Shown here in pieces: positions 19,914 through 27,697 of a DNA stretch of 64,000 nt (position 1 is the first letter of the stretch; every line of letters begins with the position of its first letter). Under the pieces are notes generated by a model. It was not told where the DNA came from and searched no databases. It worked only from the letters and a program-made list of their open reading frames with translations. Origin of the DNA: Planctomycetota bacterium (lineage in GTDB: Bacteria; Planctomycetota; SZUA-567; H5-PLA8); the NCBI GenBank assembly GCA_037129555.1, contig JBAXUS010000004.1, positions 19,726-83,725 on the forward strand, read 5' to 3'. The translations under genes and the position numbers were made by a program.

Positions 19914-20018
19914 GGAATTCCTAATTAAAAAGTTTTGAACACATGACGGCGGCTGCGTCGTTTAACGCGTTCATTTATATACGCCGCACACTCACACTCA
20001 CACTCATCTACACTTCAT

Positions 20019-20849
20019 TCATTTGTGCGTCGCATAATAATACGCTAGGACGATCAGTCCCAGGGCAATGCGATAGTACCCGAACGCGGCGAGGCTGTGT
20101 TTGCGGACGTAACCGATCAGCCAATTTACCACGATCCACGACACAACAAACGACGTGATGCTGCCGATGAGCAGGACCGGCACGTGCTCGGCTTGAATCA
20201 GTTTCCAACTCTTGAACATCTTGTATGCGAACGCGCCGAACATCGTCGGGATGGCGAGGAAGAACGAGTATTCGGCGGCGGCGTTGCGGGTTAGGTGCAT
20301 CAAGCGGCCACCGACAATCGTCGACGCCGAACGCGAGGTTCCGGGGAACATGCTGAAGCATTGGAAGACGCCGATGAAAAAGGCCGTTAGAATCGGCGTG
20401 TCTTCAGCGGTCGTGTATTTTCCGTTGTCGCCTCCGCGTTCAATGAGAATCAAAATAATCCCGCCCAGAATCAGAGCGATGGCGACGGGCACCATGGCCA
20501 TGAAATTGGCTTCGAGCTTTTTATGAACCAGCGGTCCCAGAATCACGACAGGCATGACCGCCACGACAAGGCCGATCCAAAACGCTTTTGATTTCGCGTT
20601 CGTCGGAATGGTTTTCACCGACTCCCACAAGCGCGCGCGATAGAGCAGCATGACGGCGAGGATGGCCGGGAGTTGGATGATCACGTCGAAAATATCGTCG
20701 AGTGTTTTGACGTGTTCGATGTTTGTATCAGGCGTCAGCGGGAGCCAGTCGCGGACGAGGATCAGATGTCCGGTCGAGGAGATCGGGAGGAATTCCGTGA
20801 TGCCTTCGAGCACGCCTTTTAAGAACGCATTGATATAATAAATGAGCAC
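20019..20849 (-). CDS. uppP: Undecaprenyl-diphosphate phosphatase UppP/BacA
   Basis: GVLEGITEFLPISSTGHLIL is the UppP signature, and multiple TM helices follow. The start is a GTG at 20847-20849, 12 aa before the GVLEG motif as in E. coli UppP. Confidence 0.85.
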   Translation of the reverse strand: MLIYYINAFLKGVLEGITEFLPISSTGHLILVRDWLPLTPDTNIEHVKTLDDIFDVIIQLPAILAVMLLYRARLWESVKTIPTNAKSKAFWIGLVVAVMPVVILGPLVHKKLEANFMAMVPVAIALILGGIILILIERGGDNGKYTTAEDTPILTAFFIGVFQCFSMFPGTSRSASTIVGGRLMHLTRNAAAEYSFFLAIPTMFGAFAYKMFKSWKLIQAEHVPVLLIGSITSFVVSWIVVNWLIGYVRKHSLAAFGYYRIALGLIVLAYYYATHK

Positions 20850-21002
20850 GTAGGAATCTCAACGATGTGGTTGCCATGGAGCAGTACCCTGCTCCGTGCA
20901 GGGAAACTGGACAGATTTAAACCGTGACGTGTTTTCAAAAAAGGCAAGGACCAGATTACTGGTCCTTGGCACCCGTCGCAATAGAAACTTTACGACGCAG
21001 AA

Positions 21003-21350
21003 CTACAAGCGCGAGTTTTTGGCGACAGCGTCGGCAGCGGTTTTGATGTCCACGTTGACCAGGCCCATGTTAACATCGCGGCGCAGCAGGACGACGAGGA
21101 TCGTCTGTCCGACGTTGATCAACGCGAGTTTATTTTCGCTACCGCCGATCATGAAGCGTTTGAACTCGCCCAACTTGATGCGCTTTAATGCGCCGTCGAG
21201 GGCGACGAGAATTTGCGACGCAATGGCACCCATCTGCTGCTCGGAGACATCTATCGAAAAGTCGCTGGCGATGATGATGCCGTCGCGGCCTACGACCATG
21301 CTGCCCCAGACGCCTTGAGTCTTGTTCAATTGTGCCAAAATCGCGCGCAT
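21003..21350 (-). CDS. Roadblock/LC7 (MglB-like) domain protein
   Basis: 115 aa. The GVWGSMVVGRDGIIIASDF....ASQILVALDGALKRI pattern matches Roadblock/LC7 (Robl_LC7). AGGAG RBS upstream of the ATG. Confidence 0.7.
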   Translation of the reverse strand: MRAILAQLNKTQGVWGSMVVGRDGIIIASDFSIDVSEQQMGAIASQILVALDGALKRIKLGEFKRFMIGGSENKLALINVGQTILVVLLRRDVNMGLVNVDIKTAADAVAKNSRL

Positions 21351-21394
21351 GCGGACTCACTCCTGTTTCGAAATTCGGTGGCGACGATCCGCCT

Positions 21395-22510
21395 TTATTT
21401 ATTCAACGCCGTTTCGGCGAAGTCGCGGATACTCTTTTCGAGCAGTCCGTGCTTGGCGTCGGATTTGGCGAAGATCGTCAGGATCATGTCGTCGAATTGA
21501 ACGATATGAATATTACCGTCGGCCCCTTCGATGACACCTTCTTCAAACTGGCCCACGCCGAGTTTCACGGAGTGGTTGCTGGCCGTGCGGTAGACATTGG
21601 TGATCAACGCGCCGACGAGCCCTTCGTCCAAGCTGGCGTCCAAATTGGCGGCGACGATCAGGCCATATTGATCGACCAAAATCGCACCGTTGACTCCGGC
21701 CACGAGACGCAAGTCGGCGAGGCCTTTTGCGAGGGCCTGGTCCTTCGTGATAACTTTCGGAGCAGCGGGCGGTAGGGACATCGGGCGCCCGACGTTCGGC
21801 ATACTGGACGGACGCGGCTGCGGTTTTCCACTGCCGGTTTTAGCGCCGGTCTGAGTCGCGATGCTTTTCGGATTCGCAGCGTCCACAATCGCGCGGGCTT
21901 TGCGTTGGAGTTCGAGAATGCCTTCATCGCCGGGCGCAAAAAAGAGGATGTCGTCCAAGCGCTGAATCGCGTCGGTGGGGCGGTCCAACTGCATGTACAC
22001 GCTGGCCAACAATTTCAACGCGAGATAATTGTACTTGTCGAGCGCAACTGATTTTTCGAGTTGCGCGACAGCTTCGGGCCACTGTTTTTTGTCGGCGAAA
22101 ATCTGTCCCAGCACCAAGTATGTGCCGCCGTATTTCGGGAAGGCTTTAATGCCGCGCTGACACGTGTCAATAGTGCGTGTGAGTTCGTCGTCGGCTTTGT
22201 AGAGTTCGGCCAGACGTGCGTAGAGGATCGGATTGGGGTGGCTTTGGATGCGTTCGACGAGGCGCTTTTTTTCCATCTCGCGCTCGGCCTTTTCCGCATC
22301 AGCCTGACGTCGCACAATTTCCGGGGCGTTGGGATACCGCGCCGCGCCCAGCTTTAACACTTGGGCGGACTTGGCCTGGTTTCCCGCTTCTTTGTGAGCG
22401 TCGGCCAGTTGTAGATACAACTGCGGCGTCGGCTTTTCGGCGAGCCCCTGCTCCAACGAATGAATTCGGGAATCGGTGCGCCATTGGACATATTTGTCAA
22501 ACAGCCACAT
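21395..22510 (-). CDS. TPR-repeat protein with C-terminal Roadblock/LC7 domain
   Basis: 371 aa. The N-terminal ~230 aa are TPR-like helical repeats (YLQLADAHKEAGN..., YARLAELYKADDE..., LVLGQIFADKKQW...). The C-terminal ~110 aa (GVNGAILVDQYGLIVAANLDASLDEGLVGALITNVY...) are a second Roadblock/LC7 domain. It lies 44 nt upstream of the standalone roadblock gene on the same strand. Confidence 0.65.
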   Translation of the reverse strand: MWLFDKYVQWRTDSRIHSLEQGLAEKPTPQLYLQLADAHKEAGNQAKSAQVLKLGAARYPNAPEIVRRQADAEKAEREMEKKRLVERIQSHPNPILYARLAELYKADDELTRTIDTCQRGIKAFPKYGGTYLVLGQIFADKKQWPEAVAQLEKSVALDKYNYLALKLLASVYMQLDRPTDAIQRLDDILFFAPGDEGILELQRKARAIVDAANPKSIATQTGAKTGSGKPQPRPSSMPNVGRPMSLPPAAPKVITKDQALAKGLADLRLVAGVNGAILVDQYGLIVAANLDASLDEGLVGALITNVYRTASNHSVKLGVGQFEEGVIEGADGNIHIVQFDDMILTIFAKSDAKHGLLEKSIRDFAETALNK

Positions 22511-22762: not shown

Positions 22763-23776
22763 TCATTTCGCGCTGGGATTTTTGGGCATGTTGGCGAGGA
22801 AAAATTCGACGGTTCGCTTCACGCCGTCTTCGTTGCTGACGACGGGCTTGTAGCCGAAATCGCGGCGCGCTTTGTGGATGGAGTAGTAATGCGAGCACGA
22901 CAGCGTCTTCGCGAGGAAGCGCGTCATTGGCGGTTCTTTGCGGCGGCGGATCAGCCAAAACGCGGCTTCCAAACACGCGCCGACATAGTACGCCGTTCCC
23001 GTGCTTACCGAGCGTTGCACTTTCGGCAGACGCATGCGCCGGAAGAAGTCGTTGATCCAATCCCAAAGGACAACCGGTTGGCCATCGGAGATAAAATAGG
23101 CTTCACCCGCAACGCGTTTGCCGGTCATCACGTCGCACGCCAGCAGATGCGCGACGGCGGCGTTGTCAACGAACGTGAGATCGACTTTGTTTTTTCCGTC
23201 ACCGACGATTTTCAGTTTGCCGGATTGGTTGCGTTGAATTAATCGCGGGAGCAAATGGTTGTCGCGCGGGCCCCAGATTAAATGCGGACGCAAGGCGGTC
23301 GCGAAAAGGCCATCGCGTCCACTGCTGCCCAGCACCATCATTTCGGCTTCAGCTTTGGTGCGCGAATAGATGTTGTAGAATGTCTCAGGGTACGGCGTTT
23401 TTTCGTCGATGCCGCATTCGTCTTTCATGTCGAAGACGACGCTGGGCGAACTGGTGTAAATCAACTTCGGGACGCCGCGCCGTTTGCAGCCTTCGATGAT
23501 GTTGCGGGTGCCGAGGACATTGATGCCGTGGAAGAGTTTCGGGTCGCCCCAAATTCCAGCGAGGGCGGCGACGTGGAATACTGCGTCCATGCCCATGCAG
23601 GCGGTCGAGCAATCGCTGGCACTGCGGATGTCGGCTTGCAGGCACTCGGCTCCAAGCGCTTCGAGTTCCGGATAGCGGTTACGACCGATCACGCGCACGC
23701 GGTCTCCGCGGCTGACCAGAAGTTCTACGATTTTACGGCCCAAAAATCCGCCGCCACCGGTGACGAGTGCTTTCAT
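22763..23776 (-). CDS. NAD-dependent epimerase/dehydratase (3-beta-hydroxysteroid dehydrogenase/isomerase family)
   Basis: MKALVTGGGGFLGRKIVELL is a Rossmann GxxGxxG motif, and the fold is SDR-extended. 337 aa. Confidence 0.8.
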   Translation of the reverse strand: MKALVTGGGGFLGRKIVELLVSRGDRVRVIGRNRYPELEALGAECLQADIRSASDCSTACMGMDAVFHVAALAGIWGDPKLFHGINVLGTRNIIEGCKRRGVPKLIYTSSPSVVFDMKDECGIDEKTPYPETFYNIYSRTKAEAEMMVLGSSGRDGLFATALRPHLIWGPRDNHLLPRLIQRNQSGKLKIVGDGKNKVDLTFVDNAAVAHLLACDVMTGKRVAGEAYFISDGQPVVLWDWINDFFRRMRLPKVQRSVSTGTAYYVGACLEAAFWLIRRRKEPPMTRFLAKTLSCSHYYSIHKARRDFGYKPVVSNEDGVKRTVEFFLANMPKNPSAK

Positions 23777-23818
23777 AAAGACGACTGTTTCGCGTTTCGG
23801 GTTTCGGGTTTCATGTAA

Positions 23819-24346
23819 TTAGTATAACGATTTCAAATACGCCGTTACTGCCAAATCGGGACGCTCACCAATTGTGGATTCCGCACCACGCAAAATCTCT
23901 GGTGGATGGCTACCCACGAATTGCTTGCGGTCAATAACAAGCTTCGTTTTGAGATCGACAAGTGTAACGTCGCAGGTTTGTGAATACCCCGGTACGATTC
24001 CACCGGTGTCGTTTGTATACTGGCAGATTTGCTTTCTATCCCAGGACAATTGCGCAATCACGCCGACTTCTACCGGTGTCGCAGCAGCGACTTTTTCGGG
24101 CAATTGAAAATACAAGTCGTCGAAGTTCTTATCTTTCAGATTTACAACGATCATCTTGCCGGACCTGAACATGAATTTGTGATCAGACTCATCCGGAGGA
24201 GCAAGATAAACACTCAAGAACGGCTTGAATGGTTCGAATTTCCGTTCACGCAAATGCGAACCGAGTCTAAACAAAAGCAGCACAGAGATCACCGCGCTGA
24301 CCACTATACTTTTCAGTTTACCCGCGCCTTGATATGACATGGTCAT
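23819..24346 (-). CDS. Hypothetical membrane-anchored protein (175 aa)
   Basis: N-terminal TM IVVSAVISVLLLF. No recognised domain. It is sandwiched between the AMP-ligase and epimerase genes on the same strand. Confidence 0.45.
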   Translation of the reverse strand: MTMSYQGAGKLKSIVVSAVISVLLLFRLGSHLRERKFEPFKPFLSVYLAPPDESDHKFMFRSGKMIVVNLKDKNFDDLYFQLPEKVAAATPVEVGVIAQLSWDRKQICQYTNDTGGIVPGYSQTCDVTLVDLKTKLVIDRKQFVGSHPPEILRGAESTIGERPDLAVTAYLKSLY

Positions 24347-24456
24347 GCCCTTTCAGGGCGATCCATTCCTCGGATTCTTAATCCCAGGGCGATGCCCTGG
24401 GCTGATATATTGAGGCCTTTCAGGCCAGTACGGCGTTGTCTTCGAATCGTTAGACA

Positions 24457-26097
24457 TCAATTTCGAACATAGGACTTCGAAACATTTTTTCCGATCAACT
24501 CCCGGTCAATCTTTGCATTGTGCCGGACGTCGACCGGGAATGGTTTTCGATAGAACTCGACGCGATCAACATGTTGCCCCAAAGGTTCCAATTTCCAGTG
24601 CTTCACGATCTCTTGTTCTACACCAGCGGCGCGGCGTTTCACGTGCCATTCGAGCGCGAGAGCGGGATTGGATGAGCTGGTTTTGATCAGCGCGGCTCGG
24701 GCTTCAATACCCATTTTTGCGCGCAGGAATTCCTCGACGATTGCTTCGCAGCAGACGCTGTAAAAAACGCTTCCGTTGGCGGCGGTGACGCGGTGAGCAA
24801 GGCGACCACAGAACCAAATACGGCCCGTTTCATCAAGGTAGCCCATGTCGCCCATGCGGTGCCAGAGGCGGCCGGTGTCGTCGATGATTTTTGCAGCGGC
24901 CGTCGCTTCTGGCATCTCAAAATATTCTTTTGTGACCACCGGGCCGCTGACGATGATTTCGCCAATGGTGTTGGGAGTCAAGGGTGTGATACTTTTTGCG
25001 GCATCATAATTGACGACTCGAACCGTCATACTCGGGAGCGGCTTCCCGACGCAATGTCCCCTTCCCTGCCGCGTCAGTGCCCACGTTTCGTTGAGGACTT
25101 CGGAGCCGCGCATGCTGGATACGGGCAGCGCTTCCGTTGCACCGTAGGGAATGAAGACGTCAGCGTCCTTCGATAAAATGGTCGCGAATGGCGCGAGCAC
25201 GTCGCCGCGCACAGGCGCTCCGGCCATCATGATGCGCTTGAGGTTCGGAAGTGTGACGCCGCGTTCAATGCAGCGTGGGCCGACGCGTTTCCAGATCGCG
25301 GGCGAGCCGAACGAATACGTCACGGCGCGCGATTGGATCGCGTCAATGAGTTTGTCCGGATCGCACGTGGCCGGGCGCGAGGGGTTCATGTCGGGGATCA
25401 CGCAGGTCGTGCCGAGCGCGGTCGAAAACAACGCAAAAAGCGGAAACGCCGGGAGGTCGATTTCGCCGGGTTCGATGTTGAAATGTGAGCGAATCGCTTC
25501 GACTTGCGCGCCGAACATGCCGTGCTCGTAACAGACGCCTTTGGGCGGGCCGGTTCCTCCGGATGTGAAGAGGATGGCGGCGGGCGATTCGGTTGTCGTG
25601 TCGGCGATTTTATACGGGCCGCGTTTGAGTCCACTTGCTCGAATTTTCGCGAGTGTCGGGCCGCCCCAAAACCAGCGGCGGCCAACGGTCACGGCCACGC
25701 GTACGGTATCGAACGCAGCGTGGCCGGTCAAAGCTCGCAACGCATGAGCCGCCGGGATTGCGATCATGGCTTCGGGTTTCGCGCGAGCGACGCAGTGCAG
25801 TAAATTTGTGCGGCCCATGCCCGGATCAATCAGCACCGGGACCGCGCCGATTTTAAAGACTGCGAACGTCAGCGCGACGAATTCCAATCCGGGCCGAACG
25901 CCCAACAACACGCGACTCCCTGGGCCGATACCTGCTTCCGAAAGTCCCCACGCAAGCGCGTCGCATTCAGAGTTCAATTCCGAAAACGTGAGCTTCGTCC
26001 GGCCGAAACCATCAGGCGCATGTGCGCAGATGATGGCGTCGCGGTTGGGCGCGGTACGGGCCATTTCGGGAAGGAATTGAGCGATGTTGAACCGCAT
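24457..26097 (-). CDS. AMP-dependent synthetase/ligase (acyl-CoA synthetase / fatty-acyl-AMP-ligase-like)
   Basis: FTSGGTGPPKG is an AMP-binding P-loop-type motif, and the adenylate-forming fold runs throughout. The track start (26112) is a TTG. An ATG 5 codons downstream (MRFNIAQFLPE) has GGAG 9 nt upstream. Confidence 0.8.
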   Translation of the reverse strand: MRFNIAQFLPEMARTAPNRDAIICAHAPDGFGRTKLTFSELNSECDALAWGLSEAGIGPGSRVLLGVRPGLEFVALTFAVFKIGAVPVLIDPGMGRTNLLHCVARAKPEAMIAIPAAHALRALTGHAAFDTVRVAVTVGRRWFWGGPTLAKIRASGLKRGPYKIADTTTESPAAILFTSGGTGPPKGVCYEHGMFGAQVEAIRSHFNIEPGEIDLPAFPLFALFSTALGTTCVIPDMNPSRPATCDPDKLIDAIQSRAVTYSFGSPAIWKRVGPRCIERGVTLPNLKRIMMAGAPVRGDVLAPFATILSKDADVFIPYGATEALPVSSMRGSEVLNETWALTRQGRGHCVGKPLPSMTVRVVNYDAAKSITPLTPNTIGEIIVSGPVVTKEYFEMPEATAAAKIIDDTGRLWHRMGDMGYLDETGRIWFCGRLAHRVTAANGSVFYSVCCEAIVEEFLRAKMGIEARAALIKTSSSNPALALEWHVKRRAAGVEQEIVKHWKLEPLGQHVDRVEFYRKPFPVDVRHNAKIDRELIGKNVSKSYVRN

Positions 26098-26143
26098 GGA
26101 ACTCCGAAACAATCAGGGTGTATCATCGGAATCGCAGTAGCCT

Positions 26144-26306
26144 TTCCCCTCTCCCCTTGAGGGAGAGGGCCGACGAGACAGCCTTTCCGTCTCGCGGGGT
26201 GAGGGGTAAACGCTAGGATTAATCCATGCGCTTGGATTAATCAACGCCATCCCCTCACCCCGCGAAGGAGTACCTTCGTCGGCCCTCTCCCCCAAGGGGA
26301 GAGGGA
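26144..26306. repeat. ~165-bp imperfect inverted duplication (two ~80-bp arms, each with two nested hairpins) centred on tandem GGATTAATCC palindromes
   Basis: Left arm CCCCTCTCCCCttgAGGGAGAGGGCCGACGAgacagcctttccgtctCGCGGGGTGAGGGGtaaacgctaGGATTAATCCA. The reverse complement of the right arm is CCCTCTCCCCttgggGGAGAGGGCCGACGAaggtactccttcgCGCGGGGTGAGGGGatggcgttGATTAATCCA, about 80% identical. Intergenic, between the gspF terminator and the AMP-ligase start. Confidence 0.6.
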
Positions 26307-26351
26307 ACTGCGGCGTGATTTCGGTGATGCACTCGAACAATCACCTGCGTT

Positions 26352-26388
26352 AAATAAAATCGGCACCCAACAAATTGGGTGCCGATTT
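26352..26388 (-). terminator. Rho-independent terminator of the GspF/PilC gene
   Basis: Perfect 12-13-bp stem AATCGGCACCCA / TGGGTGCCGATT with a 5-nt loop. On the minus-strand transcript it is followed by a U-rich tract (AUUUUAUUUA), and it sits right after the gspF stop. Confidence 0.6.
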
Positions 26389-26413: not shown

Positions 26414-27697
26414 TTACTTTCCGGCGCTCAAGCGATCCATGATCTTGATCAGCGGCATGAAGAGCGCGATGACGATGAAGCCGACGGTCAGACCCATGAC
26501 GACGATCAAAATCGGTTCCAACAAGCTCATCAAGGCACTGACCAGCGTATCGACTTCGTTGTCGTACGTGTCTGCGACTTTCATCAACATCTTGTCCAAT
26601 TCGCCGGTTTCTTCACCGACTTGAATCATGTTGACGACGAGATCGTCGAAGACGCCGGAGTGCTTCAAAGGTTCGGCGATAGTGTCGCCTTCTTTAATCG
26701 AGTTGTGGACCGTTTCGACGGCGTTCGCGACGACGGCATTGGATGTAGCCAATTTAATGATCGAGAGGGCTTCGAGAATCGGAACACCGGAAGTGACAAG
26801 CGTCCCCAGTGTGCGGCAGAAGCGGCTGACCGACGACTTCGAAATGATCCCGCCGAAGATCGGCACTTTCAACGAAATGGCATCGACGATCAAGCGACCA
26901 CGCGGGGTTCGGACGATCATTTTAAAGATGACCCAGAACAGCACCGGCGTGAAGATCAGGATGTACCAGTAATTTTTCATCACGGACGAAATGGCCAGCA
27001 GCACCAGTGTCGGGCCGGGCAATTCGCCGACGTCCATTTCAACGAACATTTCCTGGAACTTCGGAATGATGAAGATCATGATGAACGACAAAATACAGGA
27101 CGCGATGAAGACGACGGCGGCGGGATACACGAGCGCACCGATGATCTTTTGCTGGAGGCGTTGCGCCTTTTCGCGGTAGTCGGCGAGGCGTTCGAGAATT
27201 TCGTCGAGCACACCGCCCGCTTCACCGGCGCGGATCATGTTGACGTACAATTTGTCGAAGACACGCGGGTGCTTTCCGAGGCCTTCGGAAAGCGAGGAAC
27301 CGCCTTCGACGTCTTCTTTCACGTCGGCGATCGCGGATTTCAAAATGCCGGGGCGCAATTGCGTGACAAGAATATCGAGACTGCGGACGACCGGCAAGCC
27401 GGCGTCCAAGAGAGTTGCAAACTGACGCGTGAACGCGGTCAATTCCTTGGGCTTGACGCGCCAAGCGAAGATCGCGCCGCCTTTTTTCTTTTCGGGTGCG
27501 GCCGACTGGGCCATGCCAAAATTCTGCGCGCCACCCCCGCCACCACTCGGCGCTTTTCCACCCTTCTGTGTCACTCGTGTCGGGAAGAGGCCCATGCCCT
27601 TGAGTTTTTCGAGCGCATCTGCTTCCGATGCGGCGTCGATATCGGACCTGACTTCTTTACCTTGGGTGTCCATTGCCTCGTATGCGAACGACGCCAT
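26414..27697 (-). CDS. Type II secretion / type IV pilus inner-membrane platform protein (GspF/PilC family)
   Basis: 427 aa. Two T2SSF repeats (...LTAFTRQFATLLDAGLPVVRSLDIL... and ...VSRFCRTLGTLVTSGVPILEALSI...), three TM helices and a Gly-rich insert. GGAGA RBS. Confidence 0.85.
   Translation of the reverse strand: MASFAYEAMDTQGKEVRSDIDAASEADALEKLKGMGLFPTRVTQKGGKAPSGGGGGAQNFGMAQSAAPEKKKGGAIFAWRVKPKELTAFTRQFATLLDAGLPVVRSLDILVTQLRPGILKSAIADVKEDVEGGSSLSEGLGKHPRVFDKLYVNMIRAGEAGGVLDEILERLADYREKAQRLQQKIIGALVYPAAVVFIASCILSFIMIFIIPKFQEMFVEMDVGELPGPTLVLLAISSVMKNYWYILIFTPVLFWVIFKMIVRTPRGRLIVDAISLKVPIFGGIISKSSVSRFCRTLGTLVTSGVPILEALSIIKLATSNAVVANAVETVHNSIKEGDTIAEPLKHSGVFDDLVVNMIQVGEETGELDKMLMKVADTYDNEVDTLVSALMSLLEPILIVVMGLTVGFIVIALFMPLIKIMDRLSAGK

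Follow-up and report, generated by a model that had tools for sequence, protein, structure and literature searches.

A probable 219-bp MITE carrying an inverted pair of BoxC-type motifs between gspF and a ligase gene of a Planctomycetota bacterium

Introduction

The spacer between a gspF gene and a gene for an AMP-binding enzyme (ligase) in a Planctomycetota bacterium contains a long inverted duplication with nested hairpins, and the question raised by this locus is what kind of element it is and how it came to lie there. The duplication was noticed in a first-pass annotation of a 64,000-nucleotide stretch of contig JBAXUS010000004.1 (hereafter the window), which offered a MITE-like insertion or a structured 5' leader or riboregulator of the ligase operon among its readings and did not recognise the motif as a known element. 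We find that it is very probably a MITE of 219 bp built on a BoxC pair, inserted after the gspF terminator and ahead of the ligase ribosome-binding site with duplication of 9 bp. In E. coli, where BoxC / PIT / TM_ECO motifs have been on record since the 1990s, they are strongly conserved, and their function and spread are unexplained.

Results

The inverted duplication is the inner part of a 219-bp element

The non-coding element occupies positions 26116–26334 (Table 1). The inverted duplication noted first (26144–26306) is located where it had been placed and forms the inner 163 bp, the true borders lying about 30 bp further out on each side. A repeat finder detected inverted arms at 26147–26176 and 26276–26305 (30 nt, 97% complementary) and at 26192–26206 and 26251–26265 (15 nt, 100% complementary). 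The inverted identity is 69% when the complete 81-nt arms are compared, not the roughly 80% first reported; the lower value reflects the unlike inner hairpins of the arms. Each arm does contain the two hairpins ascribed to it: both share the local hairpin CCCTCTCCCC/GGGGAGAGGG, and the second hairpins are CGAGAC..GTCTCG (26174–26194) and CGAAGG-TACT-CCTTCG (26263–26278, minus strand).

The RNA folding energy, including that of the minus-strand transcript whose folding had been proposed as a check, was −145 kcal/mol with z = −14 relative to shuffles on either strand. The DNA folding energy was about −79 kcal/mol (z = −12 relative to shuffles). The folding programs modelled Watson-Crick and GU pairs only. 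In the predicted RNA and DNA folds, 26116–26146 pairs with 26306–26334, and the central segment forms the apex stem of the predicted hairpin. Words of the motif occur six times within the element and essentially nowhere else in the 64 kb.

The centre had been described as two copies of a 10-bp perfect palindrome separated by 8 nt. The spacing is correct, but the second copy, GGATTAATCA (26234–26243), is one mismatch away from GGATTAATCC. Within the family the centre is conserved over 44–46 bp with the consensus GTAAACGCTGATTAATCCAAGCGCATCGATTAATCAGCGTTTAC, and the twin GATTAATC is common to the centres of about 30 related copies. Since a self-complementary word inside an inverted repeat must recur as a direct repeat, the twinning adds no information. 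Centres differ in other lineages, and some have a palindrome of their own, for example TCTTGCAAGA. On general grounds of DNA biophysics, an AT-rich centre would be expected to ease cruciform extrusion.

Table 1. Positions of the element, its parts and the adjoining features in the window
Feature	Position	Strand	Remark
Left copy of target-site duplication, AAACAATCA	26107–26115	.	Direct repeat with 26335–26343, 8/9
Left terminal inverted repeat, GGGTGTATCATCGGAATCGCAGTAGCCTTTC	26116–26146	+	Homology to other copies starts at 26116
Arm 1, BoxC/TM-type motif	26147–26206	+	Block pattern same as TM_ECO (PMC4666352)
Arm 1 pyrimidine block, CCCTCTCCCC	26147–26156	+	Followed by loop TTGA
Arm 1 first purine block, GGGAGAGGG	26161–26169	+	
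Arm 1 expanded loop 2	26170–26196	+	Hairpin CGAGAC (26174–79)/GTCTCG (26189–94)
Arm 1 second purine block, GGGGTGAGGGG	26196–26206	+	
Central segment	26207–26250	.	GGATTAATCC at 26216–26225, GGATTAATCA at 26234–26243
Arm 2, BoxC/TM-type motif	26251–26305	-	
Arm 2 pyrimidine block, CCCTCTCCCC	26305–26296	-	Followed by loop TTG
Arm 2 first purine block, GGGGAGAGGG	26292–26283	-	
Arm 2 loop 2	26282–26261	-	Hairpin CGAAGG-TACT-CCTTCG (26278–26263)
Arm 2 second purine block, GGGGTGAGGGG	26261–26251	-	
Right terminal inverted repeat (reverse complement GAGTGCATCACCGAAATCACGCCGCAGTT)	26306–26334	-	Homology to other copies stops at 26332–26334
Right copy of target-site duplication, GAACAATCA	26335–26343	.	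Direct repeat with 26107–26115
Probable intrinsic terminator of gspF, outside the element	26357–26388	-	14-nt arms, 100% complementary, 4-nt loop
Start of AMP-binding enzyme	26095–26106	-	Shine-Dalgarno GGAG 26102–26105, ATG 26097–26095; read from sequence
T2SS-F (gspF)	26414–27697	-	
AMP-binding enzyme (ligase)	24457–26097	-	546 aa, called from the same ATG in the public contig

The genomic context agrees with the first description: the element follows a gspF terminator, a 14-bp perfect hairpin with the T-tract TTTTATTT directly after it on the minus strand, and lies upstream of the ligase start. A terminator scan did not list this terminator, though its hairpin and T-tract are visible. Only 18 nt separate the end of the element from the ligase ATG, and the duplicated target abuts the GGAG. 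Once the element and one repeat copy are removed, only about 35 nt remain between the terminator T-tract and the ATG, and the reconstructed empty site reads ...GCAGGTGATTGTTTCGGAGTTCCATG... The single ORF across the element (75 aa, 26113–26340, minus strand) has no Pfam family. A search of the region against Rfam, which had been suggested as a check, returned no family; it returned only microRNA-precursor models at about one third of their thresholds, which are generic long-hairpin matches. The promoter and terminator scan, whose coverage does not extend to planctomycete promoters, found no promoter-like site in or near the element, and an outward promoter within it is thus not supported.

Two further observations concern the surroundings. 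On the minus strand of 22763–26097, the ligase gene is followed by one for a 173-aa protein and then by a 3-beta-HSD/epimerase-family gene; among the homologues of the ligase in databases, some bear the name olefin beta-lactone synthetase, and this may therefore be an ole-type hydrocarbon locus. The GC skew of the window is negative to about 20 kb and positive after it, with a cumulative minimum near 20 kb. The switch falls near 20000–22000, some 6 kb away from the element, and may reflect a replication origin, a terminus or a rearrangement.

Copies at unrelated loci have common borders and target-site duplications

When the whole 64-kb window was compared by megablast with 110 metagenome loci, 32 of them matched it only inside 26116–26334, with 83–92% identity. 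One locus (L100) covered all 219 bp, exactly 26116–26334. Alignment of the copies with their flanks identified 23 distinct members of the subfamily of the window, all with the same architecture and centre, in which conservation runs about 30 bp past the first-noted coordinates on both sides. The terminal inverted repeats measure about 30 bp and have the family consensus GGGTGCATCACCGGACTTGCGATTGTTTTTC, and the terminus consensus GGGTGCATCACCGGACTTGCG is found at both ends in 29 distinct copies. The genes adjoining the element are unrelated from copy to copy at 29 loci or more, and homology stops at the element borders.

The 9-nt flanks of the 29 distinct copies bounded by terminal inverted repeats match at 5.7 of 9 positions on average, versus 2.2 of 9 for mismatched partners. 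The match reaches at least 7 of 9 in 13 of the 29 copies and is perfect in four, and the four perfect 9-bp duplications are all different (GAATCAGAC, AATCCTTTT, AAGACGCGC and TGAGTGAGT). In the window copy the target-site duplication matches at 8 of 9 positions, and the duplicated target is (A/G)AACAATCA. The family therefore combines terminal inverted repeats with a duplication that is constant in length and specific to each locus, in a short unit that has no coding capacity. Because terminal repeats, 9-bp target duplications and sharp common borders are found together at unrelated loci, the element is, judged from its sequence, a MITE with a 9-bp target-site duplication. The suggestion of a MITE-like insertion is borne out by dozens of such copies. 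A dedicated 5' leader or riboregulator, which had been put forward beside it, is unlikely because the neighbours of the other copies are unrelated; the absence of the element from the corresponding spacer of two relatives (see below) and the lack of an Rfam family also speak against it.

The window itself contains one copy. Another 23–32 copies are found on contigs most of which derive from the lake samples that also yielded the window strain, and the tetranucleotide correlation of these contigs with the window (0.94–0.97) is the same as that of pieces of the window with the rest of it. Based on composition and shared samples rather than on a closed genome, it is likely that the copies are multiple in the same genome or population. 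The same strain is present in six public assemblies. The ends of three independent short-read contigs of the strain (Logan; L002, L003, L006) fall inside the right arm at about 26279–26281 and differ by no more than 1 nt, as would be expected of a repeat. At least four copies are present in a related MAG, JBBRQD01.

A scan of species-representative genomes with CCCTCTCCCCNNNNGGGAGAGGGCCGA yielded at least 79 loci. Among Planctomycetota MAGs, SPRUCE 341 has at least about 27, and SMAG_U12015 and SMAG_U4729 at least about 10 each. The matches listed also include MAGs of Binatia, Alpha- and Gammaproteobacteria, Nitrospirales, Chloroflexota, Verrucomicrobiia and Rokuibacteriota. The plan that recurs among the listed loci consists of hairpin 1, a variable segment, GGGGTGAGGGG, a spacer and the mirror image. 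By crude longest-ORF calls, 59 copies face gene 5' ends, 37 face 3' ends and 11 are "inside ORF", the last probably spurious ORFs; given the crudeness of these calls, we do not rely on the bias.

The arms are a variant of the BoxC / PIT / TM_ECO / HPGQ motif

Both arms are arranged as CCCTCTCCC, 5 nt, GGGAGAGGG, a loop and GGGTGAGGG. They begin as CCCTCTCCC-CTTGA-GGGAGAGGG (26147–26169, plus strand) and CCCTCTCCC-CTTGG-GGGAGAGGG (26305–26283, minus strand), and both fit CCCTCNCCC-N3-6-GGGNGAGGG-loop-GGGNGAGGG, the pattern of Holder et al. (2015). By this block pattern, the arms of the window are the E. coli BoxC / PIT / TM_ECO / HPGQ motif in an inverted pair with an expanded second loop, a known motif that the first-pass annotation did not recognise. 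We class them as a variant and not as plain members of the motif, because loop 2 is 27 and 22 nt long and has a hairpin of its own. By inspection against the purine-motif rules of PMC4666352, the second purine block GGGGTGAGGGG is compatible with antiparallel triads (G.G:C, A.A:T, T.A:T).

In E. coli the motif was defined as CCCTCNCCC N3-6 GGGNGAGGG N3 GGGNGAGGG (TM_ECO; Holder et al. 2015, PMC4666352). That work counted 23 copies in MG1655, where five sites have inverted pairs made up of two arm types, and 3610 across 262 proteobacterial genomes. The same study reported that the motif formed a triplex in vitro, that no triplex was found in vivo, that it had neither promoter nor terminator activity, and that it was associated with local instability; it saw no link to mobile elements and noted that no mobility genes or remnants had ever been seen nearby (PMC4666352). 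Earlier work on BoxC/PIT by Bachellier and by Hoyne/Maher is cited there. Viewed from the side of the G-quadruplex, this E. coli family has been described as the HPG1/HPG2 "G-quadruplex-hairpin-duplex switch" motifs (Kaplan et al. 2016, PMC5100583).

The correspondence extends beyond the three blocks and their order with a first loop of 3–6 nt. Like the E. coli motif, the window arms are intergenic and multi-copy and belong to a class with frequent inverted pairs of two non-identical arm types, and their loop 2 starts with CCG as in E. coli "type B". When the loop-2 hairpin is left out, an arm is identical to that type, GGGAGAGGG-CCG-GGGGTGAGGG. The differences are a loop 2 of 22 or 27 nt with a conserved hairpin in place of about 3 nt, a host in the Planctomycetota in contrast to the proteobacterial genomes from which TM_ECO was reported, and the framing of the pair by terminal inverted repeats and a 9-bp target duplication. 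As in HPG1/HPG2, which often occur as opposite-strand pairs, four G-tracts follow a C-rich block (GGG-AGA-GGG ... GGGG-TGA-GGGG in the window arms); unlike in those switches, the central loop of a G-quadruplex would be 22–27 nt long with a hairpin.

A 37-nt short-loop form matches 5009 of 5426 complete E. coli genomes, at a median of five places. In strain S51, the phnD-phnE spacer contains two inverted pairs of the short-loop motif, as two tandem copies of the whole BoxC-pair unit. We also observed that in the MG1655 BoxC pairs (L201–L205) and in L086:1490–1725 conservation exceeds the published 34–37-nt motifs, with GAC.G....GAGCAC..TTTGT...TTGTCAT on the type-A side and GCAC.GTTTTC on the type-B side.

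The loop-2 hairpin is maintained by compensatory changes

The long-loop form was missed by published searches because these allowed loops of only 1–6 or 0–10 nt (PMC4666352). We scanned the metagenomes with GGGAGAGGGCCGA-N6-TACT-N6-CGGGGTGAGGGG, a pattern that is modelled on the arm-2 type of hairpin and leaves 12 stem bases unspecified. All six pairs are complementary in 120 of 121 matches, with 10 different stems; copies with a common stem are related by descent, and the independent events are therefore about 10 stem types and not 121. Among 11 distinct sequences, 98.5% of cells are paired compared with 64.6% in shuffles, five of the six pairs have varied on either side, and the pairing collapses in slid controls. 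The pattern of substitutions shows that the loop-2 hairpin is structurally constrained, and its maintenance by compensatory change argues that a folded single strand matters.

Hairpins in loop 2 of other lineages covary as well (CGT-GA-GC-GAA-GC-GA-ACG versus CAC-...-GTG; GGCGC-TTTA-GCGCC); a bulged A is retained too, as are outer CG/CG or GG/CC pairs. The difference in hairpins across Planctomycetota lineages indicates that the shape is conserved and the design is not. Loops of 12–45 nt are found in 86 arms and loops of 2–5 nt in 16 among the representative-genome matches listed, a sample biased by the search pattern. In loci of SPRUCE 341 (L008–L077) and SMAG_U12015 (L007–L083), the second loop forms a mini-hairpin, GC-GNA-GC, with tandem G.A mismatches on its flanks and an outer stem that covaries (CGT/ACG versus CAC/GTG). 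The reverse complement of loop 2 ends in CGTCGG, and we considered the CGTC-tagged REPs of PMC3733652 as a candidate, but the A/T first stem pairs and the CCA tail that define them are absent.

The terminal scaffold and the BoxC-pair core are separable

In SPRUCE 341, elements of 99 bp (L057:2568–2666) and 139 bp (L033:2783–2921) have the same termini (GGGTGCATCACCGGACTTG...) and no BoxC core, with target duplications that match at 8–9 of 9 positions. These coreless elements indicate that the terminal scaffold exists alone. The same termini also frame elements of 183–237 bp, in which the core is of the type prevailing in that genome. Families made up of only the BoxC-pair core occur in other MAGs without these termini, and those of SPRUCE 341 and SMAG_U12015 gave no consistent target-duplication signal. 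Taken together, coreless elements and core families without termini imply that scaffold and core are separable. In the lineage of the window, scaffold and core move as one unit of 217–219 bp; the BoxC core may have further means of spreading or persisting.

Searches of the window, of about 1.8 Mb of related loci and of IMG/VR found neither an autonomous element nor a transposase with the same termini, and the unpaired terminus matches in the related loci (19-mer with up to 3–4 mismatches, 14-mer with up to 2) were all contig ends or had degenerate partners. IS1 also makes 9-bp duplications, and the terminus of the element agrees with what we take to be the IS1 inverted repeat at only about 12 of 24 positions; we make no use of this lead. 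A search of a literature library returned no paper that ties motifs of the BoxC type to MITEs, nor any account of such elements in Planctomycetes.

The orthologous spacer of two relatives lacks the element

The element is absent from the orthologous gspF-ligase spacer of two syntenic relatives, whose ligases are 71% and 68% identical to that of the window; one of them is MAG JBBRQD01, which has copies elsewhere. An empty-site comparison with these two nearest syntenic relatives gave no nucleotide-level alignment, because they are too diverged at 68–71% protein identity. Each spacer holds a different long palindrome, GGTGCCACGGAGCAGTACCCTGCTCCGTGC ... GCACGGAGCAGAGTACTGCTCCGTGGCACC at L197:3838–4000 and an AT-richer one of about 110 nt at L198:3845–3965. 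Thus, three lineages have three unrelated palindromic inserts at one site.

Discussion

We propose that a staggered-cut (DDE-type) transposase acting in trans moved the element into the spacer. From the outside in, the unit consists of terminal inverted repeats of about 30 bp, the inverted BoxC / PIT / TM_ECO pair, with each arm running from the pyrimidine block to the two purine blocks, and a 44-bp AT-richer centre with two GATTAATC. A single strand, either DNA or RNA, is predicted to fold into one long hairpin from which two side hairpins branch. The hairpin of loop 2 would set the 3' end of the first purine block beside the 5' end of the second, and a fold-back triplex or four-tract G-quadruplex like that of the short-loop motif could then still form. 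Because only 18 nt lie between the element and the ATG, the ligase mRNA must start inside the element or traverse it, and would in either case have a very stable hairpin in its leader. As in the bacterial MITEs reviewed in PMC10969869, the element is short (219 bp), non-coding, intergenic and multi-copy, has terminal inverted repeats and a duplication of fixed length, and folds into a long hairpin; unlike in those, the interior is a widely conserved pair of triplex/G4-type motifs and not the remnant of a deleted IS.

Other explanations were weighed against transposition as a MITE. An immobile inverted duplication that arose locally by chance would be in keeping with the single copy in the 64-kb window, but it is refuted by the terminal repeats, the target duplications and the dozens of copies at 83–92% identity that share sharp boundaries at many loci, and a fold z-score of −12 to −14 is also against it; we regard its probability as negligible. 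Alternatively, the element could be REPIN-like, with inverted REP units moved as a single-stranded hairpin by a RAYT (a HUH tyrosine transposase). In favour of this, two palindromic units stand in inverted orientation on either side of a spacer, single arms also occur, and the core-only families in other MAGs lack a clear target duplication. HUH/RAYT-type transposition (IS200/IS605-type elements) makes no target duplications, but copies with the termini of the window carry duplications of 9 bp. There is no GTAG tag at the arm ends, and the resemblance to the CGTC tag is loose, since the A/T first stem pairs of CGTC REPs are missing here. With target duplications present and the GTAG tag missing, mobilisation of the REPIN/RAYT kind is very improbable for the subfamily of the window. 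REPINs (Bertels & Rainey 2011, PMC3116915) are likewise inverted doublets of short palindromic units with a spacer and decayed singlets, and have, as is likely here, many copies per genome; they differ in their GTAG tag and lack of target duplication, and the window family has longer termini. The retention of hairpin shape with variable stem sequence speaks for the REPIN-like reading, being typical of structure-recognising HUH enzymes (PMC3116915, PMC3337134).

It is also conceivable, but unlikely, that this is primarily a structural DNA or RNA element selected by the host, which merely rides on the transposon. Its role could then be that of a barrier (triplex, G-quadruplex or cruciform), a binding site for a protein, a stabiliser of mRNA or a regulator in the 5' leader of the ligase operon. 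Loops and spacers vary between Planctomycetota and E. coli, but the three G/C blocks hardly change, and the compensatory changes keep the loop-2 hairpin; conservation of structure could equally well reflect the needs of a transposition machinery. The position 18 nt from the ligase ATG means that the element must affect or join the transcript, the crude ORF calls place more copies at gene 5' ends (59 versus 37), and in both relatives the corresponding spacer holds a long palindrome, a different one in each. Against such a role, neighbour genes are unrelated among copies, homology stops at the borders, and neither an Rfam family nor a promoter-like site was found. The E. coli motif is reported to form a triplex or G-quadruplex in vitro (PMC4666352, PMC5100583); promoter or terminator activity and an in vivo triplex were not found for it (PMC4666352). 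Insertion as a MITE thus remains the reading that we prefer.

For annotation, the element fragments short-read (k-mer) assemblies and creates spurious ORFs, and it sits directly upstream of start codons, where it may alter expression. A MITE in an intergenic spacer is ordinary; a concrete handle on the spread of BoxC-type repeats is less so. The BoxC / PIT / TM_ECO / HPGQ motif itself is known. New are its long-loop form, which was beyond the reach of earlier motif searches, its occurrence in a phylum far outside the Proteobacteria, and its embedding in an element marked by transposition. Here the element in which the motif pair travels has terminal repeats and 9-bp duplications. These are direct evidence of transposition and suggest how the puzzling BoxC / triplex repeat can spread. 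We tentatively raise a broader interpretation, which we consider possible though doubtful: BoxC/PIT/HPGQ pairs may be the conserved cis-acting core of old, phylum-spanning non-autonomous transposable elements, whose mobilising or protecting machinery would read the folded single-stranded DNA, that is, the triple block with its structured loop 2. If this were true, the planctomycete copies would be the first place in which to see the mode of spread of this repeat and to hunt for its transposase.
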